This document shows, in pieces, positions 9,451-64,000 of a stretch of 64,000 nucleotides of DNA. A program made the translations under genes and the position numbers. Positions within the stretch are counted from its first letter, which is position 1; the number at the start of each line of letters is the position of its first letter. Source of the DNA: Psammoneis japonica (lineage: Eukaryota); contig QPGO01000070.1 in NCBI GenBank assembly GCA_008632985.1, forward strand, positions 62,001 to 126,000, in the 5' to 3' direction. The notes beneath the pieces are model-generated. The model was not told where the DNA came from and made no database searches. It saw nothing but the letters and a program-made list of their open reading frames with translations.

Positions 9451-9570
9451 TGTTATTCTATTCATTGCGTTTGATCAAGCTACAAGAAAAAGTGTGCTGA
9501 GGGAATCAGCTGAACGGGAGACGGGCAATTCTTATTTTGAAGACTGAGTTTACGGAATAGAATTATCTTC

Positions 9571-17741: not shown

Positions 17742-18099
17742 CAAACTACGTTTTTGAGAAATATCGATGATTGTCATCATCGTCGTGCTTCGGTCGCGGT
17801 GGTGATGGTTCTCGTTTTCGTGCGCGATCGGGTGTGACTAGGGCCTATGAATAATTCTTGTATTCAAAAATAAACACTAAAAAAACCTTATTCAAATGCA
17901 ACGGTAATTTTAGGATAAACGCGGGGATGACCCCCCTTAATAGGTCTACTACCCTGTAGCACAGCCAGGACGCTCGATCAGGAAGTCCGTCCATGCATCC
18001 CTGTCCACCCCCCCCCTCCCCCCGACATCCGCTCATTGCCCGGTGACAGACATTCTCTCTCGATCGTTGCCCAAGAGCGACAGTCATAAACTCGGTTGT

Positions 18100-29800: not shown

Positions 29801-30463
29801 GTGTCATTTTTGCTCATTCTTGTCGCAAACAAGTCAGACGTTGGCCTATTAGAACATGATGATGAAGACGACCACTCTCTGTTGCTTTCATCGTATGGTG
29901 GCTCGATTTTTACGTGGACAAGACGGCTTATGAGTCTAAAGCGTCACGAAGAAGTCTTGAACGAGGCATTCTTCGTTTCCGCAATTGATCATCAGAAAAA
30001 GTTCGACACAATGATTAGATTGAAAGGCGCGTCCATCGACAGACGCGTGATCAAGAATGATGCGCAAAGTATTAAGAAACATAAAAGAGCAGGCGAAAGG
30101 AGGCCGCCAGCGGCACGGAACCAAAACGACGGCAGCGCTATGATTGGCTCGACAGGCAAGCCATTTGACAAACAAGTCAACAAGGACAACACGAAAAGGA
30201 GGAATGGGCCAATTACAAATCAGGACATATTGGCAGTTGCTGGCGAAAGTAGTAGGCCGGACGACACGTTGCAATTAGTTTCGTCGAAGGCTGCGTCAAC
30301 GAATCCGTCATCAAATCTCAAGCAAATGCCGCAACTCACGAGCACGCCGGATAATGTTGATTTTTTGACACTCCAGGAAAAGAAGGCTCCACAACCACAG
30401 ACAACTACAAATTCGAAGAAGAAACGAAAGAACAACAAAAAGAAAAGGCGGGGCAAAAAGTGA
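23839..30463 (+). CDS. ~2180-aa double SF1 helicase (Upf1/SEN1-like plus UvrD-like) with TPR-like region, TRANK1-like; exons 23839-27040 and 27126-30463
   Basis: Helicase 1: QGPPGCGKT, DEAGQ, GDPKQL, QYRMHP, VDSFQGQE, RLNVALTRAK. Helicase 2: ESRSGTGKT, spliced AYLDEIQD, AGDPAQMI, NYRTS, SKGLEFDDV, ELYVAVTRA. An 85-nt GT-AG intron joins the two ORFs in frame. Basic C-terminal tail. Confidence 0.92.
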
Positions 30464-33000: not shown

Positions 33001-33255
33001 TAGCACGGCACCCCGGTTCTTTCATGATCGCAATTCCGCATGTTGTCTGTTGGATCTTGGTTGGCGTGTTCTCGTGTCTCCCTTCGTCTTTTTGATGTCT
33101 GTCAGCATTTTGAAAGAACATACAATATTCAAGCTTTTATAATTATGAATGATATGATTTCATCAATACATGAGAGATCATTAAACCACAAAGATGGCGC
33201 GCAAAACAATCTTTCGGCGCAAGCCATCATCACTCGCACACACACATACAACGCC

Positions 33256-38199: not shown

Positions 38200-39450
38200 C
38201 TTCGGCCCTGGCTGCTGTTGCTGCTGGCGTGACCTTGCTCCTTGCTTTGATCGCTGGTCCTCGTCTTCCCAATTCAAAGCCCCAAAGTGAACGTGCTTCG
38301 TGACAACAAATGACAGCGGCCTTTGGATCAGAAACTCCGTTTGGCGTTTGCGTTGTCTTGCCATTGTTTTGGGCTGACCGTGTCCCATGACACCGTGTGA
38401 TTCTCCTCTCTTGAGTCATCATGACTTCACGATTGCATCTGCAAGCAGCAGGCATCAGCAATTGCCTCCAATGATGTCATTGTTGGAGAACACCAGCTTC
38501 TTTTGCTGTCACAATCATTTGCAGCACAGACAAAACTTCGTGTCAGAAACACATGGTCTCAAATGCACCTTAGAACCATGCCTCCACATCACATTTTTCT
38601 CTGCCATGTGACAACAGCTCCTGGCCACACATGGGGGTTGTGGCAGGCTTGGTTGTTGTCAAGAGTGAAGAGAGCGCAACAATTTTGTGTTGCAAGCTGG
38701 AGCTGCTGAAACTCATCTTGTGGTGGAGGGCCGGTCAACCAAGTGACCAAGACCACAACAAAACACCACCAAAATGTGCCATGCACTTGTGGGCACAGCC
38801 CACATGTTGTGCACATCATCATCGCACCAGATGCCAGCAGAGGCCAAGGGTCGGCAACAAAAAACAACAGTGGAAAGTCAAGGCAGATTTTCTCTGTTTG
38901 CAGCAAAATGATGGCTGATTTGACAATTCTGGGATGGCACAGATCAGCCAATCAAGTCAAACCATGAGATCTAAAAAAGCCAAAAACACAGACAGGAGAG
39001 TGCAAAAACAGGAGCACACCACCACAAAATGGGAGAAAAATGGCGTTTTCTCAGCACACTCTGCTGCTGACATGTGCCTCAGGTTGCTGAAACTCTGACC
39101 TCACCCCATGCTGCTGATCATCTGTCAAGAACAACAAGGAGGGAACTCATGGCTGGCCTCATCATCTCTTGTCTGTCTGCACCACTCTGTCCTGCTTCAT
39201 GATGCTGCTGGTGTCCAAAAACCCTTTCTCCCCGGCAGCCTCTCCAGTTGTGCGTGGCACCACACCTCTCCATGTCATCATGGCTGCAAAGAGGGAAAGC
39301 TCACATGTGTCTCTGCTTGCCTTTTGTGGTGAGCTTGATTTTGCATGTGAAGAGAGCACTCGGAGTGCAGAGGGGAGGGGGGGCGTTGTGAAGGGCTTTG
39401 GAGCGTTGTTCGCCCCAACAAAAACTAACTCTTTCTCTCAGACATGAAGT
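38200..39450. other. TpA/CpG-depleted block 5
   Basis: Same signature, with CpG retained at the left margin. Confidence 0.85.
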
Positions 39451-45449: not shown

Positions 45450-47397
45450 TTCATCCGATTTGTCTCCTCCAATGTCTTCCGAAAGACGCGCTCTAGCCCT
45501 CTCCACCCTTGCTCCTTGCTGCACCTTTTCTCTCATCCAGGCGCCGTGCAACACGCAACCTCTAGAGAGAGTGTCATGCCAGCTCGCCTTGAGCTTGCCA
45601 TCTGCACCAGCACTGGGGATGCATTCACAATGACACAAGACTGCATGCTTTTGCATTGCCATTGGTCATGCATGCAGCAAAAGCATGAGCTCGGTGGTGC
45701 AGTGTGATGTGTCCCCTCAATTTTAGGATCCGACCCTTGGCACCCACTCATTTCTGTGAGACCACGTCAAAACAATGCAATGATGGTGCACTGTGCTGAA
45801 GCCCTGATGCATCCTTGGCTTTGTGAGGTGGGATCAGGCAGCAGATCTGTGATCATTGCAACAGGCAGGATCATCCTTGGGCTTGGACATGGATTGATGG
45901 CTTCCTGTGCTTTCTCATGGTTGCTGGACTGTTGGTGATCAGTGATTTGATTGTCTGCTGGGTCAAGCCACTGCCAGTGGTTTGTGGCATCTCTGCACAC
46001 AAGAGGAGGCAAGGGGGCACCTGGGGCAAAAGAAGAGGTCTCCACCTCTTCCTTTTGCCAAGAGTGAACAGTCCAGACTCTCCCAGCTGCGCTGCCAATC
46101 ATGCCCCAGACAACTGGAACAAGAATGTGGGTGGCTGTAAAGTGGGAAGAAAGGGTGCCAACAAAGTGACCAGAGGTGCCTGGGCACAAAAAAGTGGTTC
46201 AGACAAGGCATGCAGCATGCAGCAGGTTTTGTCAAAGCAACTGCAAAACTCAAGTGACCATGTTGTGCTCACAGGGGTGCCCTCTTTTGACTCTGTGCAT
46301 CAAGTCTGTCTGAAAAATGCCAATGTCACAAGCATCCCCAAGGCTCTGCCTCATGTTGTTTCACTCAGAACAGAACAGAATTAGAAGGGGTGCACTTTTC
46401 AGAAACTGCAATGGCAAAATGTGACACACCACAATTGAAAGCTGCTGAGCAAGATGACCCTCTGTGAGAAGCAAGTCAAGAGTGTCACAAATCCCCAAAA
46501 GCACACTGTGAATTTTTTGCCAAAAAGCATGTTGAGTGGAAGCAAGTGTGCAAAAATCTCAGACTCCTTTGGTGGCACAAGCAATGTGAAAGATGTGCCA
46601 ATGTCACAGAGCCAGCAGCCAACCACATGCACACAAGACGCGTTCCAGGTCTAGGTGGGACCTCGCACTACTGAACTGTGACATCGATAGTTTTTTGAGT
46701 CTCGTCGTATGTCGCGCACGTAGATTTCTACGTGATTTTTTCGATATTTTGTGTCATTTTACGGTACACTTATTGAGCGATCCGTCCAACAACTTTTGAC
46801 ATTTTTTGTTACAGCGCGATTCTACAATGTCTTAAGAATCGCGTAGGGCAGGCGAAGTTGCAAAAACGTCGAGTGGTAAGAGGCATAATTGTACCACAAA
46901 CTTGGCCGTTTATTTGATGTTGAAGATAAATATATCCATTAATTAAATTCTCGTACTACGGAGCTCGCACGTAGAATTCTACGGGCCCAATGTCACAAGG
47001 AGTCCCACCTAGGGCTGGAACGCGTCACAAGAGGATGGCCAGGCCAGCCAACAATTTTCAAGCTGCGAGAGCAAAGCCCAACAGCAGCAATCTTCAGCAA
47101 GCATGGGCAAAAGGGCTGGGATGAAACAATCTAGTCACAAGATGAGGCTCATGTGCAATTGTGTTGTGCCAGCTTGTGCACTGCAACCAAAGCCATTGGC
47201 AGAAAGCGAAAACAAGTCAGCACACCAAGCAGCATCTTTGCTGTGACAGTGTCACAAGCAAATCAAGACCCCTCTTGAAAAATGTGTCAACCCCACAGCG
47301 TTTGCTGTGGTGAGATGCATCAAAGTGCAGTGTGCATTTTTGATGCAAAATTGGAGCGGTCAGTTGAGTGTTGAGTCGAGCTGAGGCAGCGAGTGTG
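45450..47397. other. TpA/CpG-depleted block 6, interrupted by a pristine MITE
   Basis: Signature present on both sides of 46637-47026. Confidence 0.88.
46637..47026. mobile_element. MITE family A, pristine 390-bp copy, ~25-bp TIRs, 4-bp TSD acaa
   Basis: gacgcgttccaggtctaggtgggac ... gtcccacctagggctggaacgcgtc; acaa at 46633-46636 and 47027-47030; rich in TpA and CpG. Confidence 0.92.
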
Positions 47398-47756
47398 GAC
47401 GGGTTCCAGTCCTAGGTGGGACTCCGTTTGACATTGGGCCCGTAGAATTCTACGTGCGAGCTCCGTAGTACGAGAATTTAATTAATGGATATATTTATCT
47501 TCAACATCAAATAAACGGCCAAGTTTGTGGTACAATTATGCCTCTTGCCACTCGACGTTTTTGCAAATGCGCCTGCCCTACGCGATTCTCGAGACATTGT
47601 AGAATCGCGCGGCAACAAAAAATGTTAAAAGTTGTTGGACGGATCGCTCAATAAGTGTACCGTAAAAAGACACAAAATATCGAAAAAACACGTAGAAATC
47701 TACGTGCGCGACATACGACGTGATTCAAAAAACTGTCGATGTCACAGTTCTGTAGG

Positions 47757-47965
47757 TACGCGCCCTGTGCACTTATGGAGCCCGACGAGGAGGGTTCGGC
47801 CCCGCCGAACCCGACGAGAAGGGTCCAAGCAACGAGGTGGAGACCGACGAGGCGGGTTGTTAGCCCTCCTCGTCGTCCACACGACAAGCTGTGGGTCGTT
47901 CTCGCCATTGTGCAACCCAACGAGAAGGTCGTAACCGAGGCGCGTTGAGTGCACACGGGAGCGTA
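47757..47965. mobile_element. Small GC-rich MITE (family C) nested in MITE A
   Basis: TIRs tacgcgccctgtgcact / agtgcacacgggagcgta; internal ccgacgag repeats; flanks tgtagg / tatagg. Confidence 0.65.
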
Positions 47966-47969
47966 TATA

Positions 47970-49534
47970 GGGTCTCCCGCTGTGAGGATTTTATATATAT
48001 AATTCGACCGTTAACTACTTAGGGAGCGCTTTCATGTGCAAGACTGAAGTACCAAAGTATTGCAAAGAGTACTTTTGTACTGCAGGTTTACTTATTGGCG
48101 ACGGTTTTTGGTGCCGACTGGCAGTCGCGCAATCATTCAAAATTATAAACGGTATATATGATATTTAATTCAAACTTATGATATATATTATATTCATCTC
48201 AGCACCTAAAGCCGTTATTACGATCGAAATTCAAAAACGTTGGTGGGATTGATTCAAATCGACCACGTAGAATTATACATATTGGTATAGTTTAACGGCA
48301 GAATCCTTGTAGTCTACATAGAGACAGTAACGGTTCTACTTACAACCCTTCTACACGATTTTTATACTGACGTACATTTGTGTACATTTTGTACCGAGAA
48401 ATTTTGTTCGACTCCGAACGGTGCGCGGTCGAGTTGATGGCTCATAATTTTTCCGAGCGGCCGATCGACAACCACCGCTCCCTCCGACAATGGCGCTTTT
48501 GGCCGATTTGACCGGTACGACACCGCCTACCGACCCCTACCTTGCTTGCTAGTGTTGCAAACCATTGGGTCGTGCCATGTGAGTGAGCCGCGGCTCTAGA
48601 ATGGGTCAGAATGACTCAAAATGTGGTGAGTTCTGATTCTCGCGGAATCAAGTCTCGTTTTCCCCCGTTCTCGTTCGCAATGGCGCTCACCTTGAACCTC
48701 CTTGTCCCGCATCTTGATGTGTGGGACTCTGAGATGGGGACATCGAAGTCCATGGGTGTGCGCCGTCGCCGTCACCGTTTTTGGCTCCGTCACCGTTCCA
48801 CCATGGTGTGCTGCTTCTGCTCCGGTCCACGCCGTCCTGCCATGGCGCTGCCTCCGTTCTCCAGGCCACTGCCACGACTTTCATGGACTGGACGAGTCAC
48901 TCGATCCCAAGTGCCAACTTTCTGCCATTGCTCGTGCCGATCCACCACCTGCTTTTGTCGTCCTGCTCCGTGGAACCAGCAGACTCTCTTTCATCTGTCG
49001 TTCCTCCCGCCGTTGACGATCCAGGCACCCCAAGTTTTGACCCTGCTGGTGAGTTTCCATTCGTCGTTTGCTCGTTGTTGCTTTGCATTTGTAGAAAGCA
49101 TTCGCAGAAAAGTGTGTTCTCACCTCCTTGTGTTGTTCCATGTCACCGCAGATGTGGTCATTCTGCAGGCGCTGGTGCCATGCTTCTTTGTGCAAAAGTT
49201 TTTGTGCATGCCAATGTCTTCTTGCTTTGTTCTTTTTGTTGAAGACATGGCACTAACTCAAACAGATCTTTTCTCTCTTTTGCGCCCTTGCGGTGTTGTT
49301 GGATTGCTCTCCTTGCGTCTCTCTCCGGCACTTGCATCATTGTCGGTCTCTTCGCTCGTGCTTTGCTCGCGTCGTCTCTTCTCCACGCTCGTTTCCCTTA
49401 ATTTTTGTACGCACGTAATTTCCACACAAATGCCTCATGTGCAGAGTGCCAAAATGCTGCCAAATTGCACAGCAACGGCCGTCAACGGTTTTTAGAATTA
49501 CTTGGGCCCACCCACACTCGAGCAGTGGGAGTCC
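47970..49534. mobile_element. ~1.56-kb non-autonomous insertion (element B) nested in MITE A
   Basis: Imperfect TIRs gggtctcccgctg / cagtgggagtcc; bounded by tata and tgca; interrupts MITE A. Confidence 0.6.
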
Positions 49535-50232
49535 TGCAGTGCGAGGTCCCACCTTCCTAGACCTGGAGCTCGTCTGTGTTTTTGCTGTGGCTGCAGCCAT
49601 TGACACACACCAGCAGGTCATGGCTGGTGGTGGCATGGCACAAAGTTTGTGCTCAAACACACGTGCTCTATTGCCTTGCTCACCAATGCCAGTTTTGTGA
49701 CAATCCTTGAGTTTGTGTGCACTTGCTTTGGAAAAATTGTTGCCCCAACAACAACGCTGCGCACACCACACATCCGTTTCAGGGAACGAGATTGCATTTT
49801 TTCTTTGAGGTGTCTGTCTTCAAGCAAAAAAAGTTGAGTGGAGGACAACATGCACTCATCTGCACTGTCTGGTTGCTGGCAGAAATGGCATGGGCACTCC
49901 CTGCTGCTGGCACAGAAGTTTCAAGTCTTCAGTGGAGAAGTTGGTGTGCACACCTCAGATGAGATTCAGATGTGATTAAAAGGTTTAGTCACATGAGTCG
50001 ACGATTTGGTTACGTTCAAAATTCCAAAATCACACAAGTATGAGAAAAGGATGTGCTGTGCTGTTGTTGAGAGTTTAGATCTTTTTCCTTCGCCCATGGC
50101 ATCGCCGTCTTCTCTCACTTCTTCGTTGCTTCCTCTTATTACAAAGCGTATCCAACATAAACTTTACCATACGTAACAATATCAAGTAAGGAAGAAAAGC
50201 TTCCGCAAATCGCTCAAGTTTGAATACAGTAG

Positions 50233-50994
50233 ATGAAGAGTCTCGAGTACGAGTACACGAGCGTGAAGCCATCATCATCAAGCAATGATGGACCGCGTCA
50301 ATATCCTCGGAGAAGGCGTGTATTGATACAGCTCACTAGAAGGCAGCGCCAGCTCTTGTATGTGATTGGTTTGATCCTTGTCGTGTGCATCTTGGTGGTG
50401 ATTCAGAAGCGAAAAGGATCCTCTTCTTCTGCTTCACCCTCGTCGGCACAATCCAAAACCGCGGACAGCAAGAACGACGACAACAACATGGCAACAACAA
50501 CCAATGCTCCCACAGTTATTTCGCCTGCTACGCACAAGCCTGCAAAACCTACTCCGTCACCGAAACCAAAGCCAAAACCATCACAAAAACCGTTTGAATG
50601 CCAGACAGATCGGCTCGGACATGCGACACGATTGGAATCCGGTCATGCCATTTGCAACCACGAGTACATGTTTGGGCTGACCCAGGAGGGCGTATTTCAG
50701 TGGCAAAACACAATAACCAACGAAACCAAGATATTTTACAATGGTATCGCTGGAGACTATTTCGTCATGGATCCAGATGCGTCTTTTAATGTATTCCTTC
50801 GAAATGAAACACGGGTGTGGCGAGAGGAATGCAACAAAAAAGTCAAATTCTATTCCCAATGTCTATCCGGGCCAGTCCTGGACTGTCCCTATCTTCATTT
50901 ACACAAGGATGGAGTTGTTGTACTGAATTGGATTGATGGGGGGTGGAACGAGAGGAATATCAAAAAGGTTTACCCACAATTGTTTGGCAAATAA
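50233..50994 (+). CDS. Type II membrane protein with Pro/Lys stalk and bulb-type-lectin-like C-terminal domain; the intact member of a three-copy family
   Basis: 253-aa ORF with a single TM segment; RLESGHAIC..YMFGLTQEG..YFVMDPDASF..YLHLHKDGVVVL resembles a degenerate B-lectin repeat (inference). Confidence 0.8.
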   Translation: MKSLEYEYTSVKPSSSSNDGPRQYPRRRRVLIQLTRRQRQLLYVIGLILVVCILVVIQKRKGSSSSASPSSAQSKTADSKNDDNNMATTTNAPTVISPATHKPAKPTPSPKPKPKPSQKPFECQTDRLGHATRLESGHAICNHEYMFGLTQEGVFQWQNTITNETKIFYNGIAGDYFVMDPDASFNVFLRNETRVWREECNKKVKFYSQCLSGPVLDCPYLHLHKDGVVVLNWIDGGWNERNIKKVYPQLFGK

Positions 50995-51792
50995 TGGTTA
51001 AAATGTGGCACCGTGTGTGTGTGCTGTCGGCGAGCAATCGCGAACAGATTGTAGCAACCATGGTCGACCTAAAAAATCATGATCAAAATGAGTTTACCCC
51101 GAATATCCCTTTTCTGTTTTAAAAACTATCATGACGGACGATCCCAATGCTGTGAAAAGGCATTGTCCTTGTTCGTTGGTGATGCGTTCCTTGCCTGAAA
51201 ATAGTATGGATAACCTGCCGCGTTTCTCTTGTGTTGGGTTTAGAGTAAACCTAGAGTAGGATTGTCACGTCCCTTTGCCTCGCCACGAGAAATATGCCAA
51301 CGCCTCTGTACTTCTAGAAAAGAAGATAAAAAGAGGTATAGCTTGGATACCGAAAGGCAGGGTTTATTATCAACTGTGCGTTCGTCGTTTTATGAGGCTA
51401 ACGTAGCGATTGAAGATAGTGTGGAACGCGTCTTTCACGAGGGCGATGCACCTGATGCATCTGCTGTAGTGGTTGCTCCGTCCCAAATAGACCTGTGGCA
51501 CCGGTTCCAGAACAGTCGCCAACGACGCAAGCGGAGTGATGGAAACGCTCAAACATGAAGTAAAAGAAAAGTAATGGCACAACGGATGACATTATACTGT
51601 AGGGAAGCACATGACCTCGATTGTTAAATAATAGTTTTGAAAGAAGTGATACCACGTTCTTTGTTCTTTTGAGGCGGAAACGACGAATGTTCAGACTCGT
51701 GGACTTTTGGAAGAAGACCGGTGAAGCAATGCCTGCGGGACGCCAGCACATAATGTTAATGGCGCAATTAACTAGATAGAAAGACTCTCTAG

Positions 51793-52780
51793 CTACTCTT
51801 CGTATTGATAGATGTTCCAATTTGGATTTTGCGTGTAAACTTTCTCATCTTCGCCGTATGGTTTTGGTCCACAGCAACGACACCCCCAGTCGTACGAATA
51901 ACCACTCCACATGATTTCGATCCCTCTACAACTTCTATCTTTGCGAGCTGCATCGCCACACTCATCAGGAGTTTCGAACCTAGTTCCAAGGTTCTTATCC
52001 TGGAAATTGTCGCACCCGTACCCAGGTAAGCGCAGAAATGTGCTCGGACATGAGTTGCCAAAGGCCGTTGCCTCTTCATGTTGGAACGCGTCGCCGCTGG
52101 CACCTACGTTGTTGTTGTAGAAAACCTGGTAGCCACCGGAGTCCGAAATAGTGAACTCGTACTGTCCAGGGTCCATGCATTGCTTGTGAACGTACTCATG
52201 GTGTGCCTTTTCGTACTTTCCACCAGTGATCGTTTCAGCAGATTCATCGCATATGCTAGTGAGGGACCACGTGGTCTCTACCGGGAAAGAGTCAGTTTTG
52301 ATTCTTATTTCGATTTGCGCCTTGTCAGTAGGACAAACTTTCTCGGGCGGTACAGACATGGAAACACCAGCACCTCCTGTGTCCTCCCAGACCTCATAGT
52401 GCGGAGAATCTGGAAAAGCTTCTTGGTTCGTCATGGCTGCAGGCTTTTTGGCGCAACACATGCACTCCTACAAGACAAAGTAGACAACACCGACACAACA
52501 TTTTAGAATGCTCACCAACCGGACAAAAAGCTACCCAGTGACAGACATTGAGACGTACTGAGGATCTTGTTCTAGTGCTGTGTGCGTACATGATTTCTGT
52601 TCCTGTACAGTCGCGGTCAAGAGTCGAAGCTTCTCCACAAGATTGTGGGTTGCTGAACGACCTTCCCAAACTCTTGATTGCAATTGGAGAACATGATTGA
52701 GATCTGTACTTCCGTTTGAACTCGCCACGGGCTACCTCTAGACAAAGGAATAGGAACAAAATAGCGCGGTAATGACACAT
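51793..52780 (-). CDS. Secreted Cys-rich protein; exons 52780-52559 and 52467-51793
   Basis: Signal peptide; phase-0 GT-AG intron; two PAN/apple-like repeats (LGRSFSNPQSC...EIMY...CMCC and LGTRFETPDEC...EIMW...CRCC) flanking an IKTDSFPVETTW...YEFTISDS beta-domain. Confidence 0.8.
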
Positions 52781-55700
52781 AGTGGCACGTTGTACGATGC
52801 TTTGTGGTTGTGGTTGGCTCGCGTTTTTATGATGGTGGCTTCGCGTTGCAAACGACGGCGCGGCCGCTGGGCGGGGATAATTTTTTGTCATCTATGCCCC
52901 ACTCAGAAAGCAACGACCAATGACCATGGCATTTTCTCGCAACTTGAGGTTTCGTTGTTCCACACAGTGGCTGCTGCCTGCAGTTGGATGCACCTGGAAA
53001 GAGCAGATTGAGTTTTCATAAAGTCTCTGGGTTGTCAGTCACATTTCTGAAAAAGAGTGATGTTCTCTCTGTGTCCTTTGCAAGTTTTTGCATGCCGGTG
53101 TGTTTGAAAAACCTCGGCAGCGATGGTGAGCACCCAGCAGAGCTTGGAGCAGAAGCGGGAGCTCGCCCTTGGTGCAAGCTGCCGGCCAGAAAAATGAGAA
53201 AATGGGTGTGTTTGTGGAGGGCTGTTGAGCCAGAGCTGCCACCCAAAAAGCTTGGTGTGCCTCTCTTTGCCCATCAAACAAGCCTGAAAAGCAAGAGCAA
53301 ACTTGTTTCTGCAGAAAAACCTTGCGCTGCTGCTCTCACACACAGGCTGGGCCTGGGAACAAGGCACTTGCCAAAGAAAGAAGAGCCAGCCCTCACACTT
53401 GCACCTGCTTCCTCTTGCCAGGCTTTGACTTTTTCTCACCTGTTGCTCTTTTAAAAAGCTGGTGTGCTTTGCCAGGCAGGGTTGTGCCTCAGAGCACAGT
53501 GAGAGCCAATGATTCTTGGCGCCACCGCCTCAGCTGGGCTCTGCAACCTCAACAATGCCCCATGACACAGCTGCTGAGTGGCAGCAACAGCTGGCTCACC
53601 AGTGTGTTTGTGTGCAGAGCACAAAAAAGTGCACATCTTTGTTGCCACAGGTTGCCCCATTGTCGCTGGCTGCTTGCCAAGATCATTGTCATTTGTTCAC
53701 CACCCAGCACCTTTTTCTGTGTGCTGCCATTGCACAGCAACTCCAAGAGCTTGGCTGCCTGCAAGTGTCCTCATGCATGGCCTGCCATCTTGACTGCAAG
53801 AGGCACAGGTTCCCAGCCACCACTGCCTCAGCTGCTGGGCTGCAACAACCTCAACAACATGCAACAGCACACAGCTGCCAAGTTGCCACAACAATCAATG
53901 CAAGTTGACACATCCAATGCTTGAAACACACACAAGCACCACACACACTCATTCATTGCTGCTTTGCAGCAGCGGCCAGAAAATGAAGCACAATTTTTCA
54001 CACCTGACTCTGTCAACTTTGTCCAGCAGCAATTCTGTGCAAGCAAGCTGTTCAGCTGCTGCTGCTGCTGCACTGTCCAAAGTGTGGTGTGGTGCATGCC
54101 CACATTTTCAGAGAGCCAGTGGTGGAGCCAGCTGGCAACAAGAAAAAAATGGTGGAGTTGAAGCAAAAACTCACAGCTCATGAAGCAAGGCAACAACAAG
54201 GAGTCCATGCCCAAAATGGGGGCTTGCATGCCACAAACTGGGCAGAAGAATGTCTCCTTGTTGGAAGGTGATGTGCTTCAGCTCTGTCAGGTGAGACCTT
54301 GCACTGCTGGACTTTGATGTGAACTTTTTTGTCACACATTGCATGCATCATGTGCTCACACTGCTGCATGACTTTGGTGGCATTTTGCATCATTTTACAG
54401 TGCAGTTGCTGGGGGCTGTCTGTTCAACAACTTTTGACATCATTTTGCTTGCACTGCACCATTCTCAAACATGTCAAGAGTGGTGCAGAGCAGGCATTTT
54501 TTCAAAAAGCTGCAAGCAATGAGAGGCACAAGTGCACTGCAAACTTGGTTGTTGTTTGCATGCACATCCACTGACTGAAGTTTTTTGCACTGCAGAGCTT
54601 TTGCATGCAGAGTTCTGTGGGCCCATTTCACCTGCAGTGTGGGGCTGGAATGTGCCTGGCAGTGTCTCAGAAACACACAACTGAGCTGCCAGCTCTCATG
54701 TCCACACTCTAGAGACAAAACAAGAGAACAAAATTTCAAAATTGTTTTGAAAAACCAGAGAAGATGGAGCATGGCTGCAGAGCCAACAATGTCAAGTTCC
54801 TTGAGCACACCACAAAAGCAACAGGCAATGGCCCACCACCAGCAGCACAACAAGAGCTGAGTGGATTTTGTGTTGAAACTCATCAGCACCCACATCAAGA
54901 GGACATGTCAACCATTTTCTAATGGACTCTTTGTCCTTGACTGGGTGAAATTTGTGCAGCTTCAAGACAGTTTCACACACATCTTTTCTGTGTCCTTTGA
55001 AGAAACTGGCTGGACATGACCACCCACCAGCTGACAAAGAGACAGCAAGTTGTGGCACCCTCCTTACAACCCCAGATCTGGACAAAAAGTGCTCAGTCAT
55101 GCAGCATGTGGGGCAAGTCAGGCCAATTCTAGTGCACCTTTGCAAAGATTCAGAGCGAGCCTCTCTTTTTTTCTGCTGTTGATCACACCATTTCTTTTTG
55201 AGTGTGCTGTTGACCCACATCCAGGCAACAGAGTCAACAAGAGTTGACAAACACATTGGTGTCATAAAAACAACAGCACAGCTGACAATCTCAATCTGAG
55301 CATCAGTGGGAGAGCATCCAAAAGCAGGTCTCGTTCAGGAAATTCAGGCATGGACTTGCTGGGATCAACTTTCCAGCCTGTTGCACTCACCCTTGAAGAT
55401 GGTTGCTGCAGAACAAGCAGATTTGGTGCCAACCTCCTGCATGAGCACACAACAGCCTGCATCTGGGTTGGCAGAAAGGGCCGCACATTTGACGACACCT
55501 CAGCTTCTGCCAGCATCTGCGGAGCTAAATTGCTCACAAAGATTTGGCATCAAAACACATTGTTCAAACTCTTTCTTGATGCTCACTGAGGTTTGGCACC
55601 AAGCCACATTGTCTCAACTGTTTCTTTGTGAACTTGAGAAGCTTGCCCAACTTTGTGGCATCAGATTTGTGTCTGTGATGACAGAGTTGTGCAAACAGCC

Positions 55701-56194
55701 AATAAGACAGAGAAAAAAATTGGCAACATCTGCCATCATGTGCCAGAACACTGTGTTTTTGAAATGCAGTTATTTGCAGTTGGTGGCTGTGCTCTGAAAG
55801 CTTCTCCATGAGCATCTCTGACAGATCATTCAAACCCCATTTTGCACACTTGGCAAACTTGAAAACAGTGGGTCCACTCACTGCACACACAAGCTGTTCC
55901 AAGTGTGCTGGGGTCTGCTGCACAGGGGCACCAGCAGCAACTTGGAAAATGGCTGAGAGGAGATTGGATGCAGCAGCTCTTGACTCAGGTGAAAAGCAAA
56001 AAGATGTTTCTAAAATGGCTGAGCAACACAAATGATGGAGCAAAGAAGGTGAGGGTCAGTCTGGCAGTGAGACATGCAATCCACCAGCCAGCTCAGCTCA
56101 CTTGCCAAATGCTTGCTTGGCAAGTCAAAACCAAGCCAAACATGTGGGCACAAAGTGCGCACCACCATGTGCATGAGATGACAAATGCTGGCCC

Positions 56195-57140
56195 TGAGGC
56201 CAACCCCAGCCGAGCGAAAAAAGAAAATGAAAAAGAGCCAACCTCAACTCTTTTTTCGTTTTGTCGTTTTGGTGACCCAACCGGCGTGAAAATTAAAAAG
56301 CTAAACATCCGGGTGTCTTGGGCATGCTGATGACAAGCAAAGCGAGAGGCCTCACACGACAATGAAGATGACGACCATGACGGCATTTGAAGTTCTACCT
56401 TATGACAATGAGAACAACACCATTAGAACCTCCATTTTTTTCTTAATCTGTGGGTGCTATTTCTTTTTTTGTTCAGTGCAAATGCAACAGGCTTGTGGGA
56501 TGACTTAAGTGGTTGTCAAGTGGAAAGTTTTTGTGCACTTCTCAGGCCATTTCGAGCCCCCAATCTAAAATCAAACAACACAAGAATAGCACCATTGAAC
56601 AAGTCGCATCTAAATTAGTCAGCATGGTCATTTCTGTGTCATGCAGATCTGCTTTAGGGACCTTGTGTGTCGACTTTCTATGATGCACATCAAAACCGGC
56701 AACATCATTTGAAGACAAAAAAAAGGTCTGTTGTAGAAGAACTGCAACATGCTTCACCAATTCCCTCAAGACACATGTCACATCTACTTCAAATCATCAA
56801 TTGGTGTTACTTCGTCAGTCATGACATTGAAAGAAGTCATCAAAAACAATCACAGACCACCATGGTAACTTGATGATGCCATGCGTGAGGCGAACTTTGG
56901 ATTGCTTTGCTGGTGTCCTACGCAAACCAAGATGCATGTACGAAATGCATGATGGCATGTGGCCCACATCACTCTTTTCTCTTTTTTCATGCTTCTGGGT
57001 TTGTGAAAAAAGAGTTGGACTCTTTTTTCATTTCGGCCGAGTTGAAAAAGAGTCCAGGGTGAAAATCCCGGTAAGTTCGAGCTTTTCGAGCTATTTCGTC
57101 TTTTTCATTTTCTTTTTTCGCTCGGTTGGGGTTGGCCTCA
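56195..57140. mobile_element. ~945-bp non-autonomous TIR element, partially converted
   Basis: ~41-bp TIRs tgaggccaacccca(g/a)ccgagcgaaaaaagaaaatgaaaaaga with one mismatch; no clear TSD; retains more CpG/TpA than its flanks. Confidence 0.8.
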
Positions 57141-58404
57141 CAGCAAGTCTTNAAAGCAGCAGAGCAATTTTGGCAACCACATGCCACACCATTGTCAGAA
57201 TGTGGTGCACCCTAACCACCAGGTTCTCTGTTGCTGCAGTTGAAAAAAAGATCCAACTGCCCAGATCTGCACCCAGCAACTCACCAGCACTTTCCACAAA
57301 GACAGAGAAACCAACCAAGATGAGCTCAGAGACAACACAAGCTCAAGCAAGTTCACTGCAGCACAGCTGAGAGAGTTTGGTTGAGCACAGAGCCAGCAGC
57401 AGACTTGTGGGCTCCAAAGCATGAGATGTGAAAACCAAATCTTGCAACGACGGTGGTTGCTGCCACAAAGCCCACTTGCATCTCCAACTCTTCTTTGGCG
57501 TCGCAAATCACACGGCACAATGGCTCCAATCCTCAAGACCCACAGGCCAGCAAGCCACCCTAAGATGTCACAAAACATGCCAGAGAGATCTCTTCAAAGA
57601 GAACATCTAAAGCCAGAGTCTGGCGCAGATGTGGCAGAGGACAAGCGAACTTTTGCCCTCCAAATGATGGGTGACAGGTGATGAAAAAGCTTGGTTGGAA
57701 CCTGCTCAAAGATTTGGCAGATGTGCTGAGCAGCATGGCAACAAACAACAAGCAGCTGAGTTTGCCCAAAGTGTGTTTGCACTGCAAAGAACCAGCAATG
57801 GACAGAATGACAAGGCCAGGTGTGAAACTCTAAGAGACCAAGCAACAAAAACAGGTTCAAAACAAAACAGATGATCCATTTGAGACTCAACCACACAAAG
57901 CCACCAAAAGCTTGTCATCAAATTTGCAGCCAAAACATGCCAGTCACCAGAGCTCTTGTGTTGTGCTCTCAGCCCCACAGCCTTTGAAGCTGCAAAAGCA
58001 AAAGATTGAACTTTTCAAGGCTCAGGCTGCCAGGGATTTAACAACATGGAAAACCCTTTCTCAAACATTTGTGTGGCCTTGGAGCAAATTAAAGTCCATG
58101 CCATCTCCTCCACCACTTTCAGCAAGAATGAAGGAGCCCACAAAGATCCATGCCACATGTCGGGATCACTGGACACAAATGATCCCTGCAACAAACACAC
58201 CCACTCAAAACAACAGAGCCTCCTTCACTGGCGCCATTGTGCAGGAAGTCAGACTTCCAAGGAGGCAGCAAAACATGAAAAAAACAGGGTGCACAGATGT
58301 GAAATTTTGATGAAGGTTGTCCTTGCCAAGTGGCTTGTCCAACTGAGACCTGACCCAATCCAAAATGTTAAGATCTCCCCCCCTTGCACATCACAGCATC
58401 ACCA

Positions 58405-59250
58405 TCTTCTCTCACTTCTTCTCAGCCCTCTTGTGACAAGGTGTGCCCAACATCAATTTCACCACATGCAACAAACACCAAGCAAAGTGAAGAAAAAGAG
58501 CTTTTCTGAGTCTGAAGTTTGAACATGTGAAGAGTCTCAAGAAATTGTGGACTGGTGCACCAATGTTCTCCTCAGAGAAGGCATGCATTGGCACAATTTG
58601 CCAGTGTGTGGTTGGTTTCATCCTTGTCATGCATGCATTGTGATGGCAACTTAGAGGTGAAAAGCACCCTCTTCTTCTTTGCCCCAGTTGGCCTGATCCA
58701 ATGATGACAACATGGCAGCAACAACAACAACAACAACAACAACAACAACCAAAGCTCCCACACTCAGTTCACCTGCCATCATGCACAAGCCTGCAAGTTG
58801 CGCTGCACCAAAAACTGACCACAAAACAAAAATCTTTTAAATGCCAGACAGATCAACTTGGTCATGTGACACGATTGGAGAGCTTGGCTGCACTGTCAGT
58901 TTTGGCCACAAGCACATGTTTGGAGTCTCACCCAGGACAGCAAACTTCAGTGGCAAAACACACCAATGATGCAAAGGCATTTCACAATGGCACCATGGTG
59001 GGAGACTGTTTTGTCGTGGATCCAGATGCATCCTTTCATTCACATCTTCAGAGCAAAAGATGTGCACAGCAAGAAGAATGTTGCCAAGAAGTCAATCTTC
59101 ATTCTTGGTGTCCATCTGGGCCTGTCCTGGACTGCCCCTGTCTTCATCTGTGCAAGGATGGAGTTGTTTTAGGGCCTTCTGGATTGGATTGATGGGGGGT
59201 GGAATGCAAGGAACATCAAACAGGTTTTCCCACAATTGTTTGGCAAATGA
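58405..59250 (+). pseudogene. Decayed copy A of the 50233 lectin-like gene, including its upstream region
   Basis: Collinear with ~50110-50994; translated remnants FKCQTDQLGHVTRLES, GDCFVVDPDASF, SGPVLDCPCLHLCKDGVV. Confidence 0.93.
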
Positions 59251-61433
59251 AAGTTGCAGCATGGCATTGTGCATGCCTGTTGGCAAGCAACAATCACAAA
59301 CAAGTTGCAGCAACAAGACAAGCAAGATCAAACTGAGCTCAACCAAGAGCACCCCTTTTAATTTTTGGCAATTGTTGCAATGCAAGTTAAGGAAACTGCA
59401 ACATCCACAATGAACATGAAAAGTGCAGTCATTGTTGCCAGCCCAACAACTGCAATGCCATCTGCGACAACTGCTCCATGTGTGCAGAGAGCTGCAAGGA
59501 TTCCAGCACCAATTTTGTGGAGCTGACCCAACATCACCACCAATGGTGCACTTGCCAGTTTCGCCACACCCACAACAAAAAAAAAACACACACACACGCA
59601 AGGCTGAGAAAAAGCACACAAGCAAACTTTGTGCAAAATCCAACATCACACTGTGGCCCTCTTGCCCTGCAAGGAATTGCTTGATTTGTGCAGCCAACAA
59701 GTCTCACAACAAATGGGTTGTTTCCCATTCCACACAATTTGGGCCATGGTTTCCAAATGAATTGCACAAACTGGCAAAAACACCAAACAACACAACTGCT
59801 GCAGAAACACCATGGACAAGTTGTGCACTGTCACGATGGAACTTTGCCATGGGTGGCTTTGGTTTGTCCATTGACCCCATTGCAATTGGGTTGGTTGCCT
59901 TTTCATCCAGCTTGCAGGTGTGTTGTAATGTCAAATCTTGTGCCACTTGCAATTTCTCTTGTGCCATTTTTTCCATGCTTGCCAAAAGTTCCATGGCTTG
60001 TTGTTGTGCCACCTCTTCTGCCAAGACTGTCTTTTGGAGGGCAGCTGTTTTTTGAATTTTGGATGTGTTGTTGTTTTGTGACACAATTTCAACCTCTTGG
60101 CGACAACCCAAAATTAAGTTTTCTAAATTGCCCTGCTTGGCTTGGGCAGCCCACAAAACACTTGGGCCACCACGCAATTGGCCAAATTCTCCATCAAGTC
60201 TCAAGCACATTGCTTCATTTTGTCCATCATGATGACAGATGATTTCAGCACCATTGTGGCCCTTGAAAAGACACTGTTGTTGTCATCATGGTCATTTCAT
60301 TCATTGCATGAGAATGTTCTGGAAAACCTGCCATGTTTCTTGGATGTTGGGGCCACAGCAAAACTGACATTGTCGCACTCCTTTGCCTGGCTGCAGGAAA
60401 ATGTGCTGCCACCTCTGCAACCAGCACAGATGAAAAGATGAAAACATTGTGGTTTGGGGCTCAGATTTGCTGCACAGCAGCCCCACACCACTCTGTCTTG
60501 CTGCACAGAAGTTGAAAAACATGACAGACATGGTGGGATTGTCAGGTGAGGGCCAGAGTCTCTGCCCTGAAGAGCATCTCTGCTGCACAGATTTAACTCA
60601 AGAACAAAGATGGGTGCAAGAGACTCAGGCAGCTGTGCAAGAAAGTGCAAAAGAGCTTGCTGCAGCAATGTCATCCACCACTCAGATGTTGCCCACACTG
60701 TTCTGTGTCAGCAACTCAGCATCACAAACAATGAGGCCAGCGCTGTGTGCCTCAACTAAGAACGCGCCCCACAAACAGGAGAAAACCAAACCAGAGCACA
60801 CCAGCCTCTTCATCACAATGTTGGAAAAAGTCCCTGTCAAAAACAATCACAGCAACAGGCATCAAAGAGTGCAATGTGCCACTTTTGACACAAAGTTGGG
60901 GCCAGTTCAGGGAGTCCAGTCAAGCCACCCATGCCTCTCTTGCTTTGCCACATGATCAAAACTCTCAACCATTGATGCTGGGTCCAGTTGAGGCCAATGG
61001 TGGCATGTCACAAAAATGTTGCACAAGCTTTGTGCTCAAGCACACATGGTTTTTGACCTCGCTCACTGATGGCACCTTTGTGACACTTCTTGAGTTGGCA
61101 GCACTCAGTGCACTTGGGAGAATTTGTCCCTCCCTGTCTGAAAGCTCACAGCCCATTCTTTCAGGGAGGGGGCACTGCTCTGCTCATCACTGAGGCATCT
61201 GTTTTCAAGCAAAAGAAGTCAAGTGAACAATTTGCACTCATCTGCACCATCAACTGCCAGGGACTCAGGATGATGGCATTGTCGCCCCCCCCCCCACTCC
61301 TGACACAGAAGTTTCAAGTCTCAGTCAAGAAGTTGTTCTTCACAACTCAGATGAATGAAAGTTTCAGTTGCAGGAGTCAATGATTTGATGACATGCAACA
61401 TTCCAAAGTTCTGAAAATCCAAAATCAAAAAGG

Positions 61434-62345
61434 TTCTCTCACTTCTTTGTTGCTCCCTCCTCTTGTGACAAAGTGTGCCCAACATCAATTTTGCCATGTG
61501 CAGCAGCTGTCAAACAAGAAGAAAACCTTCCGTGAATTGCTCAAGTTTGAACATGTCACAAAGAGTCTCAAGTGTGAGTTCATGAGTGTGGCACCCCCTC
61601 ATCATCAAGCAATGACAAAGTGTGTCAGCATCCTTGGAGAAGATGCACATTGACGCAACTCACTTGAAGGCAATGCCAGCTCTTGCATGTCATTGGTTTG
61701 ATCCTTGTCATGTGCATCTTGGGGGTGCTTCAGAAGTGAAAAGCATCCTCCTTTTCTTCTGCTTCACCCTCATTGGCCCAGTCAAAAACTGCAGACAGCA
61801 ACAAAAATGAAAAAAAACATGGCAACAACAACAGAAACCAATGCTCCCACAGTCATTTTGCCTGCTGCACAGAAGCTTGCAAAACCCACTCTGTCACCAA
61901 AACCAAAACCCAAGCACCACAAAAACCACTTGAGTGCCAGACGGGCTGGCTTGGCCATGTGACACAAGCAATTGGAATCCTGTCACACCACTTGCAACCA
62001 CAAGCACATGTTTGGACTGACCCAGGATGGTGTGTCTTCCAGCAGGAAAGTGCAGTGGCCAATGAGACAAAAGAAGCGTTTTGCAGTGGTGCCACCAGAG
62101 ACTGTTTTGTCATGGATCCAGGTGCACACTTTGATGCATGTCCACGAAACAAAAAATGAGTGTGGGGAGAGAAGAAGGAAACCAAAAAGTTAAACTCTGT
62201 TCTCAGTGTCTGTCCGGGCTGGTTCTGGACTGTCCCCATTTTCATTTGCACAAGGGTGGTGGAGTTGTTGTGCTGATGAATTGGACTGATGGGGGGTGGA
62301 ACAAGAGGAGTGTCAAAAAGGTTTGCCCGCAATTGTTTGGCAAAC
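61434..62345 (+). pseudogene. Decayed copy B of the 50233 lectin-like gene
   Basis: Remnants CNHKHMFGLTQDG, DCFVMDP, KVKLCSQCLSGLVLDCPHFHLHKG, DGGWNKRSVKKVCPQLFGK; frameshifts. Confidence 0.93.
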
Positions 62346-64000
62346 AAAGGTTGCGCAGCACATTGTGTGTGCCTGCTGCAACATTGGCAAGCAACAAACA
62401 CAAAAAGCACAGCCATTGCTGTTGCCAACCCAACTGCAAGGCCATCCACAACAACTGCCCCATGTGGGGAGAGCCACAAGGATTCCATCACCAACTTTGT
62501 GGAGTTGATGACCCAACACCACCATCGGTGCCCCACTTGCCAGTTTCACAAAACACCTGTGTCACAAAATGCACACACACACACACACACATGCATCAAG
62601 GCTGAGAAAGTGCACACAAGCAAACTCCTGAGAAAAATCCAACACTGCACTGTGGCCTTCAGTCCACAAGGAATTGGTTGTTGTGTGCACAGTCAAGTCT
62701 GCCAACAAATGGGCTGTTTCCCAAACCTTGCCATCTGGCCCATGCTTTCCAAACAAATTGCACAAATTTGCAAAATCACCAAACACAACAACTGCTGCAA
62801 AAACACCAATGACAAGGTTTTGGTTTGTCCATTGATCCCACCACAATCAGGTTGGCACTGATTGCCATTTCATCTAATTTGCAGGCACAATGCAAAATGG
62901 AAACTTGCGCCACATGCAATTTCTACATTGCCATTTTTCCACAATTGCCACCCAACCCCAACACTTGGCCTGGGCTCCCATGTGATTGTCTGATTTCTCC
63001 ATCAAATCTTGAGCACATCATTTTGTTTTATCTTTCATGACAGATGATTGCAGCGCCGTTGTGGCCCTTGAAAAGACATCATCCTTGTTGCCGTTGTTGT
63101 GGTCATTTCACAAAAATGTTCTAGAAAACCTGCCACATTTCTTGAAGATTGAGGCCAGAGCAAAACTGGCATTGTCACATTCCTTTGCATCATCATGAGA
63201 AAATGCACTGCCACCTCGCTCCATGATTGCAAGGAAAAAGATGAAACCATTGTGAGTCAGATGCACCGTGCAGGGGCCACCCTGCTCTCTTTTTCTGCAC
63301 AGAAGTTGAACAACATGATGCACCTTGGGATTGTCAGCTGAGGAGCATGACAAAAGTCTCTGTCCTGAAGTGCATTTCTGGACCCACTGCATGAGCCCAA
63401 TGCAAGAAAAGCAAAGGTGGTTGCAAGATGCTTCATTGTGCAAGAAGGTGCTGCAGCCAGAAAGAGCTTGCGCTGTGGCAACATTGTCGGCTGCTCAGAT
63501 CTTGCCAACATGTTGCTGCCTCAGCAATTGAGCAATGCAAATGACAAGGCAAAGTGCCACAGTTTCCACAACCAAGAAAGTGCCCCCCACACAGGAGAGG
63601 AAACCAAACCAGAGCACACCAGCCTCTTCATCACAACATTGGAAAAAAAAGACCTTCTTCATGAAAAACATGGCAAGATGTGTCAAAGCACAATGTGCCA
63701 CTTTTGACATGAAATCAGGCTGGTTCATGGAGTCTGGTCAAGCCACGCATGCCACTCTTTCTTTGCCACATGATGAAAATTGTCAGCCATCGATGCTGGG
63801 GTGGGGCCAGTTTTGAGGCCGCTCTTGGTGGCGCACTGCAAAGTTGTCGCACAAAGTTGGTGCTCAAGCACACACACTTCTTGACCTCACTCACTGACAG
63901 CACCTTTGTGGCACTTCTTGAGTTGGCACTGTGCTGCATGCTTTGGGCAACTTTGGGAGAAAAAAATTGTTGCCCCCCGTCCGCAAGCTCAGAGCCCACT

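Follow-up and report, generated by a model that had tools for sequence, protein, structure and literature searches.

We analyzed a 64,000-bp stretch of the genome of the diatom Psammoneis japonica (GenBank assembly GCA_008632985.1, contig QPGO01000070.1, positions 62,001 to 126,000 of the forward strand; hereafter the window, numbered from its first letter) and found that a large part of it consists of DNA in which TpA has been almost completely, and CpG largely, replaced by TpG and CpA. The substitutions were followed base by base between an intact gene in the window, referred to here as gene A, and two decayed copies of it (copies B and C), and in three further pairs of normal and decayed sequences. 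These comparisons indicated two separable transition processes, one at TpA and one at CpG, which are regional in extent and for which location, not copy number, is the trigger. To account for them we propose a regime directed by chromatin, whereby deamination would affect both the adenine of T-A-Y (Y, pyrimidine) and the 5-methylcytosine (5mC) of CpG in silent domains bounded by transcription units, a reading towards which we lean, if only modestly. An earlier reading of this DNA, made from its letters (the sequence-only reading), had pointed to systematic TpA and CpG differences between gene A and its copies, and the strings that it quoted from the three sequences are all present at the positions it gave.

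Fate of TpA and CpG in gene A and its decayed copies

The features of the gene A locus and of its copies are as follows (O/E, ratio of observed to expected counts).

50233-50994, + strand: gene A, an intact open reading frame (ORF) of 253 aa, the reference for the ancestral state
49977-52953: island of normal composition with gene A and a spliced gene (51793-52891, minus strand), a block in the hidden Markov model (HMM) segmentation described below (TA O/E 0.62, CG 0.99)
49572-49976: depleted segment directly upstream of the gene A island, homologous to 61021-61407
58396-59314, + strand: copy B of gene A, decayed, 70.7% identity over 731 columns
61434-62352, + strand: copy C of gene A, decayed, 76.9% identity over 923 columns

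The product of gene A resembles a type II membrane protein and belongs to a family conserved in diatoms. Eighteen homologues were found at E<=1e-3, those with a named source including one from Cylindrotheca closterium and two MMETSP transcripts; no Pfam family was matched by the protein, and in the family alignment (16 sequences) the motif CPYLHLHK was invariant. The island in which the gene sits has edges that are sharp at 100-bp resolution. Two contigs of sequencing run X2 matched gene A with 0 differences, and one contig skipped 52467-52557. This run behaves like RNA, although no run containing the stretch is recorded as RNA, and its near-zero cover in the depleted blocks was counted neither for nor against their silence.

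Copies B and C have both lost the ATG and contain indels, and tblastn gave two matches for each copy, in different frames as read from the coordinates. They sit in a tandem unit of ~3 kb (58396-61433, and 61434 to the window end), whose unit-to-unit matches are 67–74%. Homology to the gene A locus reaches ~600 bp upstream of the gene, represented for copy C by 61021-61407, which matches the depleted segment before the island, and picks up again downstream, where 51112-51331 matches 63021-63246 (copy C, score 106) and 60229-60441 (copy B, score 102) against shuffled-control maxima of 34 and 30, respectively. Because flanks are shared both upstream and downstream, the copies are genomic duplicates and not retrocopies. 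A further 0.7–1 kb of sequence is common to B and C and missing at the gene A locus. When the TA and CG columns were removed, the identities were 420/527 between A and B, 450/527 between A and C, and 390/527 between B and C, which indicated that the intact gene has changed slowly and that B and C have each changed fast.

With the intact (normal) copy of each pair taken as reference, the loss of TA and CG from the decayed copies was nearly complete. The systematic differences noticed by the sequence-only reading were borne out, as copy C had kept 0 of 38 TA sites (18 had become TG and 11 CA) and 3 of 42 CG sites (25 TG, 11 CA), and copy B 1 of 21 and 1 of 27, respectively; the other 14 dinucleotides were kept at 44–80% in these two pairs. 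Self-comparison of the window gave three more pairs: a Rer1-family gene (4824-5587 vs 3038-3829; TA kept 0/24, CG 1/27), a short sequence at 21736-21979 (vs 4279-4518; TA 0/5, CG 0/8) and a high-copy miniature inverted-repeat transposable element (MITE; 46746-46905 vs 54382-54548; TA 1/10, CG 0/10). Pooled over the five pairs, TA was kept at 2 of 97 sites, with 76 converted (42 to TG and 34 to CA), and CG at 5 of 117, with 96 converted (50 to TG and 46 to CA), compared to 1448 of 2393 sites of the remaining dinucleotides taken together (Fisher p 1e-34 for TA and 3e-37 for CG). Transversions at TA were few (19/189), and outside the TA and CG contexts the copies differed by 302 transitions and 169 transversions at 2135 sites. 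The sequence-only reading had proposed comparing A>G at TpA with A>G in other contexts, and the change was more frequent at TpA: scored as T>C, it affected 82 of 189 Ts of TpA and 161 of 1204 Ts outside it (RTB and YTB, given below, added together; R, purine; B, any base except A). The balance of TG and CA outcomes varied among loci, without TA and CG being linked in any consistent way, and no strand rule for these outcomes could be extracted from the locus comparison.

The direction of change was settled by an outgroup together with the discordant outcomes in the two copies. Tyr220 (TAT) and Arg127 (CGG) of gene A are invariant in 16/16 homologues in the protein alignment; in place of the Tyr220 codon, copy B now has TGT and copy C has CAT, and in place of the Arg127 codon they have CAA and TGG, respectively. 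Different products at one site mean that the ancestor must have been TA or CG. Among the 15 TA sites of gene A at which both copies are now TG or CA, the product was the same at 6 and different at 9, while at the CG sites converted in both copies it was the same at 12 and different at 6. The direction from TA to TG/CA, for which the sequence-only reading had taken the open ORF as its marker, therefore stands.

These observations also bear on the possibility that TA and CG were scarce in the blocks from the start, this DNA being foreign or under selection, and gene A being the derived form. For most of the block DNA no source could be recognised (a credible Pfam family was found for 0 of its 147 ORFs), and tblastn with 45 ORFs from the normal blocks turned up relics of only two gene families in the depleted ones, both of which would be expected of such DNA. 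The outgroup, though, makes the TA and CG codons of gene A ancestral, B and C often disagree in their products where both are converted (9 of 15 sites for TA), and three unrelated sequences, gene A, the Rer1-like gene and the MITE, show the same conversion. We give intrinsic composition next to no credence; as an explanation it is contradicted by the ancestral Tyr and Arg codons and the discordant products.

We also considered whether modified bases at TA and CG in heterochromatin had been misread as TG or CA, the true sequence being ordinary. Misreading on either strand would give the observed mix of TG and CA, and run X1, the only public run with the stretch, has no recorded library type and may be the assembly's own data. 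A k-mer assembly of this run at an even depth of ~60 reproduced the blocks, its contigs covering 53174-56206, 57153-58706, 58759-60115, 60789-62982 and 62985-63636 with 2–19 differing letters each. These differences between X1 and the window, 2–19 letters per 0.65–3 kb inside the depleted blocks (53174-63636), could be alleles. More tellingly, the decayed copies also differ at 15–26% of the columns outside TA and CG and by indels, they show double changes between TG and CA that cannot be misreads of TA or CG, and elements of intermediate depletion exist, a combination that does not fit misread modified bases. In addition, mutations of the same type were scored de novo in Illumina-sequenced lines of the chlorarachniophyte Bigelowiella natans, according to the main text of a preprint (Mettrop et al., bioRxiv 10.64898/2026.01.13.699255). 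A sequencing or base-calling artefact was rejected on the divergence outside TA and CG, the indels, the double changes and the intermediate elements, and we regard it as very improbable.

Depleted blocks, genes and mobile elements across the window

Segmentation of the window with a two-state HMM assigned 24,464 of the 64,000 bp (38%) to ten depleted blocks. Pooled over the blocks, the O/E values were 0.04 for TA, 0.15 for CG, 1.84 for CA/TG, 0.73 for AT and 1.32 for GC, compared to 0.54 for TA, 0.99 for CG and 1.21 for CA/TG in the remainder, which has the same base composition. In absolute terms the blocks contain 73 TA and 207 CG, where ~1,650 and ~1,400 were estimated from base composition. 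Many stretches viewed in 1-kb windows had a TA O/E of 0.00–0.09 and a CG O/E of 0.00–0.39, with TG and CA at 1.3–2.2. The blocks, together with the other depleted and partly depleted features, are listed here.

1267-4621: depleted block (HMM), in which 3094-3833 (minus strand) is a decayed copy of the Rer1-family gene next to it (4875-5876)
6893-9453: depleted block, TA O/E 0.06, CG 0.17
18094-21598: depleted block with TA gone and CG partly lost, TA O/E 0.05, CG 0.32
30795-32946: depleted block, TA O/E 0.02, CG 0.10, ending 93 bp before the ATG of the ORF at 33040-37113
38395-39360: depleted block, TA O/E 0.03, CG 0.16
45586-46638 and 47024-47356: depleted DNA split by a young, compositionally normal MITE inserted at 46639-47023
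48560-49400: segment of a ~50-copy family with TA lost and CG kept (TA 4 observed vs 39 expected, CG 53 vs 59)
52954-56210: depleted block, TA O/E 0.06, CG 0.09, including a decayed MITE copy (54382-54548)
56197-57137: terminal inverted repeat (TIR) element, partly decayed, within a depleted region; inverted ends of ~45 bp with one mismatch, X1 depth ~850–990
57124-64000: depleted block made up of the ~3-kb tandem unit and running past the window end, TA O/E 0.05, CG 0.13, TG 2.00, CA 1.73

In the third of these blocks the inequality of the two losses was visible at a finer scale, 19701-20300 having 1 TA against 46.6 expected and 17 CG against 29.2 expected. The last block differs from most others, which are near balance, in that its + strand carries more CA (899) than TG (692), with skews of A over T and of C over G. 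A single N lies at 57153, just past the TIR element.

The sequence-only reading had expected the two processes to offset each other in G+C, such that scans of composition would miss them, and the values agreed with this: G+C was 0.465–0.507 in the depleted blocks and 0.415–0.496 in the normal ones. With a pair of processes that is neutral in G+C, repeat-induced point mutation (RIP) indices, AT-richness scans and many repeat finders would all pass over the signature.

The block edges were sharp at 100 bp, as illustrated at position 4621, across which the counts of TA plus CG per 100 bp changed from 0, 1, 0, 0, 1 to 9, 10, 11, 7, 7. Where long ORFs abut the blocks, the edges lie 62–331 bp from the ORF ends; short intergenic spacers in 9454-18093 are of normal composition. 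Within 13 ORFs, the dinucleotides spanning codon positions 3 and 1 had an O/E of 0.57 for TA and 0.89 for CG. Silent positions in genes are therefore unaffected, and the signal is regional and not the result of selection on proteins. A genome-wide neutral bias masked by selection on proteins was considered as a candidate and ruled out by these codon-boundary values.

The sequence-only reading had placed the mutator on repeated or silenced DNA, and the repetition part of that claim did not hold. The depth of the X1 contigs was 56–72 in the blocks, equal to that in genes. By contrast, the MITE copies at 46639-47023 and 47398-47755, with an X1 depth of 16,000–87,000 (~1,400-fold), had TA O/E values of 0.93 and 0.84 and CG values of 1.51 and 1.67, and a second repeated family, at 48003-49336, had an X1 depth of 2,500–3,500 (~50 copies). 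In each duplicate pair one copy was spared, gene A and the Rer1-like gene being intact beside their decayed copies. The single-copy depth of the blocks, the undepleted high-copy repeats and the spared copies together indicated that location, and not copy number, is the trigger. The part of the claim concerning silence is kept in the reading that we favour, in which silent chromatin would serve as the address.

The mobile elements can be arranged by age, from the young MITE, which is normal, through the TIR element, which is partly depleted (TA O/E 0.28, CG 0.69), to the old MITE copy inside a block, which is saturated, and this series supports a regional process that depends on time. The two MITE-like copies (~360–385 bp) are inverted relative to one another, 95% identical over 359 bp, and enclose a depleted segment of 333 bp. 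Run X3, whose contigs are 47–154 letters long and which is possibly small RNA, covers only 46636-46975. The neighbouring ~50-copy family (47756-49571) has a left part with a TA O/E of 1.10 and a CG O/E of 1.41 and a right part that is TA-free; no Pfam family was found among the 5 of its ORFs that were tested. An X2 contig matched 48732-49047 and 49151-49391 of this family with 57 differences and skipped the gap between them, as if it came from a spliced transcript of a paralogue. A metagenome scan for DNA of relatives returned 4 loci of 1.1–1.9 kb, all of normal composition, which are too short to contain a block and are thus uninformative on other diatoms.

The layout of the blocks could also be explained by protection instead of targeting, in that TpA and CpG might be hypermutable everywhere, with transcription-coupled or gene-body-directed repair keeping genes normal and the blocks displaying the spectrum that remains without repair. 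Mismatch repair guided by chromatin marks has been reported in humans and plants. Depletion extends over nearly all of the window's non-genic DNA (24,464 of 64,000 bp), the edges lie within 62–331 bp of the ends of the abutting ORFs, and transitions dominate outside the hot contexts (302 transitions and 169 transversions at 2135 sites), which has the flavour of unrepaired replication errors. Protection fits less well with the young transposon insertions inside depleted DNA, which keep their full TA and CG, and with the normal composition of the short spacers between genes in 9454-18093. The context effect estimated below, 77-fold, is also larger than is known to us from repair-deficient spectra. 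Furthermore, the baseline genome of B. natans, intergenic DNA included, mutates normally, with only two regions affected, according to the preprint's main text (bioRxiv 10.64898/2026.01.13.699255). We consider protection unlikely, and sequence alone may not be able to separate it from targeting.

Two processes, their sequence context and a proposed mechanism

The loss of TpA proved to be separable from the loss of CpG and at least as fast. The two depletions were correlated over 400-bp windows (r 0.81), yet 14 of these windows had a TA O/E of at most 0.10 with a CG O/E of at least 0.5, and none showed the converse (CG at most 0.15 with TA at least 0.40). This result upheld the proposal of the sequence-only reading that a second, TpA-specific A:T>G:C mutator acts beside CpG decay. 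One example is the segment at 48560-49400, at which, among the 40 (of 554) variant rows listed, several TG or CA sites read TA in most of the other genomic copies. In addition, ~5 of the ~17 internal differences within the 95%-identical MITE pair were between TA and TG or CA, and none was between CG and TG or CA.

One explanation that would link the two losses is that TpA change is a by-product of repair, whereby T:G mismatches arising from 5mC deamination in methylated blocks are processed by long-patch resynthesis, and a Pol eta-type polymerase, being error-prone, introduces mutations at A:T pairs close by. The signature of Pol eta, known from somatic hypermutation, is WA>WG (W, A or T), with TA the hotter of its two WA motifs, and both this preference and the correlation of the depletions over 400-bp windows would be in keeping with it. 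The other WA motif was not raised, since A>G affected 56 of 444 AA sites, compared to 65 of 415 CA and 40 of 345 GA sites. The by-product explanation is also at odds with the loss of TA where CG is intact (4 vs 39 expected and 53 vs 59 expected, respectively, in 48560-49400), with the MITE pair, with TA loss that is everywhere at least as complete as CG loss, and with the low number of transversions at TA (19/189). We therefore regard it as improbable.

The fate of TpA varied with its flanking bases. T>C affected 60 of 117 RTA sites and 22 of 72 YTA sites (p 0.006), and the preference for a preceding purine was also seen outside TpA (RTB 117/570 vs YTB 44/634; p 5e-12). Correspondingly, the TAs that survive in blocks were mostly YTAR (55 of 73, vs 245 of 1478 in normal DNA; p 3e-28), and only 1 of the 73 was RTAY (vs 458 of 1478). 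The extended motif of TpA loss is thus R-T-A-Y, or T-A-Y when read on the strand of the adenine.

A process acting on thymine would need to be considered alongside one acting on adenine. TET/JBP-type oxidation, in silent chromatin, of the T in TpA to 5-hydroxymethyl- or 5-formyluracil, either of which mispairs with G, would give T>C, and a related activity on 5mC would link it to CpG. As TpA is self-complementary, T>C and A>G within it are indistinguishable, and the outcomes were symmetric (42 TG vs 34 CA). Base J, found in kinetoplastid telomeres, and 5-hydroxymethyluracil, found in dinoflagellates, prefer the T in TpA, and both hot targets here, 5mC in CpG and T in TpA, are a 5-methylpyrimidine before a purine. 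T before G was not hot, however, T>C being found at 65 of 415 NTG sites and 82 of 189 NTA sites, and we know of no such thymine modification in diatoms. Oxidation of thymine is, in our opinion, decidedly unlikely.

The substitutions did not appear to stem from a single event. Double transitions, TG>CA (30/194) and CA>TG (27/231), were the commonest changes of TG and CA, and their frequency points to cycling through a short-lived TA or CG, and so to a process that is continuing or repeated and not one burst. The blocks hold 73 TA and 207 CG against 5,615 TG plus CA. If they are near equilibrium, TA would be lost ~77 times, and CG ~27 times, faster than single transitions recreate them.

Based on these data, we return to the chromatin-directed regime put forward at the outset. 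It would be a regional mutational regime imposed on silent, non-genic DNA of the diatom, with transcription units spared, in which two context-specific transition processes would run continuously or repeatedly until saturation. The first would convert TpA to TpG or CpA (A:T>G:C) on both strands, with R-T-A-Y sites converted most rapidly and Y-T-A-R sites least rapidly, and its enzyme would most likely be an adenine deaminase of the TadA/ADAT type, or another with the deaminase fold, recruited to silent chromatin. The second would convert CpG to TpG or CpA in the same domains, most likely by deamination of 5mC. Anything within such a domain, be it a spacer, an old copy of a transposon or a duplicated gene that has fallen silent, would be irreversibly erased, with G+C left unchanged. 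Such erasure might serve genome defence, the role that the sequence-only reading had suggested. What the data show directly is the substitutions with their polarity, context and regional limits, their independence from copy number and the separability of the two losses; the address in silent chromatin, the deamination chemistry and a role in defence are inferences from these.

TadA, ADAT2-3 and the adenine base editors derived from such enzymes convert A to I (read as G) and require T or U before the target. Bacterial TadA reads U-A-C-G, and in most substrates of eukaryotic ADAT a purine follows A34. To our knowledge, it has not been established for any natural enzyme of the TadA/ADAT family that it mutates genomic DNA in silent chromatin.

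Several points weigh against the chromatin-directed regime as we propose it. The counts in its favour come from one 64-kb window, and the agreement of the X1 contigs with the blocks is weak independent support, since X1 may be the assembly's data. The 147 stop-to-stop block ORFs (at least 80 aa) yielded no credible Pfam family, viral or transposon ones included, and two sub-threshold matches. The deaminase is a best guess drawn from the mutational signature and from analogy, and the T-A-Y preference fits bacterial TadA and not most eukaryotic ADAT substrates. With respect to B. natans, the foreign DNA that is the target there is not what was found here, where the blocks hold relics of gene A, of the Rer1-family gene and of the MITE. 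In addition, CpG decays in the same blocks here, and the words CpG and diatom are absent from the main text of the B. natans preprint.

If the regime exists as proposed, it would have consequences beyond this window. Its target is not restricted to viral DNA, and the erasure of silenced host-gene duplicates would have a bearing on gene-family turnover. A natural adenine mutator of genomic DNA would be of interest both to mutation biology and to base editing, and several diatoms are transformable. We speculate further that a chromatin-guided R-T-A-Y deaminase, together with methyl-CpG deamination, might constitute a two-armed “YpR eraser” in diatoms and, given B. natans, perhaps in much of the stramenopiles, alveolates and Rhizaria (SAR), one that would permanently destroy whatever DNA comes to lie in silent chromatin, surplus gene duplicates included, at no cost to G+C, and would so decide which duplicates survive and shape more than a third of the genome; this extension is tentative, and we would sooner doubt it than rely on it.

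The normal DNA of the window contains several other genes of note. The ORFs at 23839-27138 and 27233-30463, on the same strand, encode the N-terminal (AAA_11/AAA_12 and UvrD-helicase) and C-terminal (UvrD_C) parts of a helicase and are probably one gene of ~2,200 aa with a short intron or a frameshift; the best named relative of a helicase in the window is from the diatom Amphora coffeaeformis (54% identity). On the minus strand, the ORF at 14445-15224 and that at 15479-17329 share the domains of a receptor between them, with ANF_receptor and the start of 7tm_3 in one and the rest of 7tm_3 in the next, and are probably one family-C G-protein-coupled receptor-like gene with an intron. The ORF at 9571-10761, which adjoins an M6-peptidase-like gene, contains a direct repeat (9604-9791 and 9934-10121; 188 bp, 82% identity) that forms two Cys-containing modules.

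Comparison with known systems

Fungal RIP depends on RID/Dim-2 and on a premeiotic stage, converts C to T at CpA (or another CpN), with TpA in excess and an AT-rich product, requires repetition, and mutates all copies of a duplication. Like the process described here, it leaves irreversible, context-specific transitions on duplicated or selfish DNA and sharply bounded blocks with odd dinucleotide content. The two differ in that TpA is the product of RIP and the substrate here, and in that G+C is unchanged here. The blocks had a TpA O/E of 0.04 and a CpA/TpG O/E of 1.84, one copy of each duplicate was spared, and the MITE pair was normal. Given the reversal of substrate and product, the unchanged G+C, the spared copies and the lack of a trigger in repetition, the process is not RIP. 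Diatoms have DNMT4 enzymes that are related to RID and whose function is described as unknown (PMC9998398), and these could bear on the CpG half of the signal.

The deamination of 5mC that underlies methyl-CpG decay produces TpG and CpA from CpG and leaves TpA untouched. The CpG half of the signal resembles it, being confined to the blocks (O/E 0.15 vs 0.99 outside), with unmethylated-looking genes (~1). It differs in that TpA is lost here as well, no more slowly than CpG and in places by itself.

The marks of ADAR and APOBEC enzymes that are fossilised in retroelement copies are one-stranded clusters of A>G or C>T that were acquired at the RNA or cDNA stage, and the A edited by ADAR is preferably preceded by U and followed by G. 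Here, by contrast, the strands were affected equally (42 TG, 34 CA), a pyrimidine was preferred after the A, and the copies of gene A are tandem duplicates that include promoter-side flanks.

A search of the literature for TpA-specific hypermutation, with most subscription journals outside its reach, found one report, the B. natans preprint, and none in diatoms. The statement of the sequence-only reading that it knew of no described eukaryotic equivalent is thus out of date. As given in the main text of the preprint (Mettrop et al., bioRxiv 10.64898/2026.01.13.699255), mutation-accumulation lines of B. natans had 302 point mutations in the nuclear genome, 231 of them in two integrated viral regions, and 230 of these 231 were A>G or T>C, all of them on TpA. 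The rate was ~6e-7 in the viral regions and 3.5e-10 elsewhere (~1000-fold), and 11 of 15 lines were affected. The region derived from a giant virus (nucleocytoplasmic large DNA virus, NCLDV) is single-copy and transcriptionally silent, and 124 clusters of TpA-poor, CpA+TpG-rich windows were reported in the genome. An ADAT2-like DNA deaminase was proposed there, with activity of ADAT2 on DNA cited.

From this main text, several features are shared with P. japonica. In both, TpA is converted to TpG or CpA on both strands, in silent single-copy regions there and in blocks of single-copy depth here; in both, a long-term signature is seen in clustered windows depleted in TpA and enriched in CpA and TpG, and there is no dependence on repetition. 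The differences begin with the host, a rhizarian (chlorarachniophyte) there and a diatom here, and with the targets, which in B. natans are NCLDV and virophage inserts and here comprise remnants of duplicated host genes, one old copy of the MITE and spacer that could not be identified. B. natans shows mild depletion (Rho TpA of 0.45 for the NCLDV region, with a cluster cut-off of 0.43), compared to saturation here (0.04). The spectrum in B. natans is almost purely AT>GC, unlike here, where CG was kept at 5 of 117 sites and converted at 96, although segments with loss of TA only do exist in the window. No flank preference is given in the main text of the preprint, compared to R-T-A-Y here, and the rate was measured directly in B. 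natans, whereas here it was inferred from composition as ~77-fold relative to back-mutation.

Taken together, the core signal of the window belongs with the B. natans kind and departs from it in two features, the recognisably foreign target and the purely AT>GC spectrum. New here are the diatom host, the saturation, host-gene relics as targets, the coupling to CpG decay and the rule for the flanking bases. The same core signature, found at saturation in a diatom, extends the process beyond one alga; it could be ancient or broadly distributed among SAR protists, and the R-T-A-Y rule and the two distant hosts are handles for finding the enzyme.

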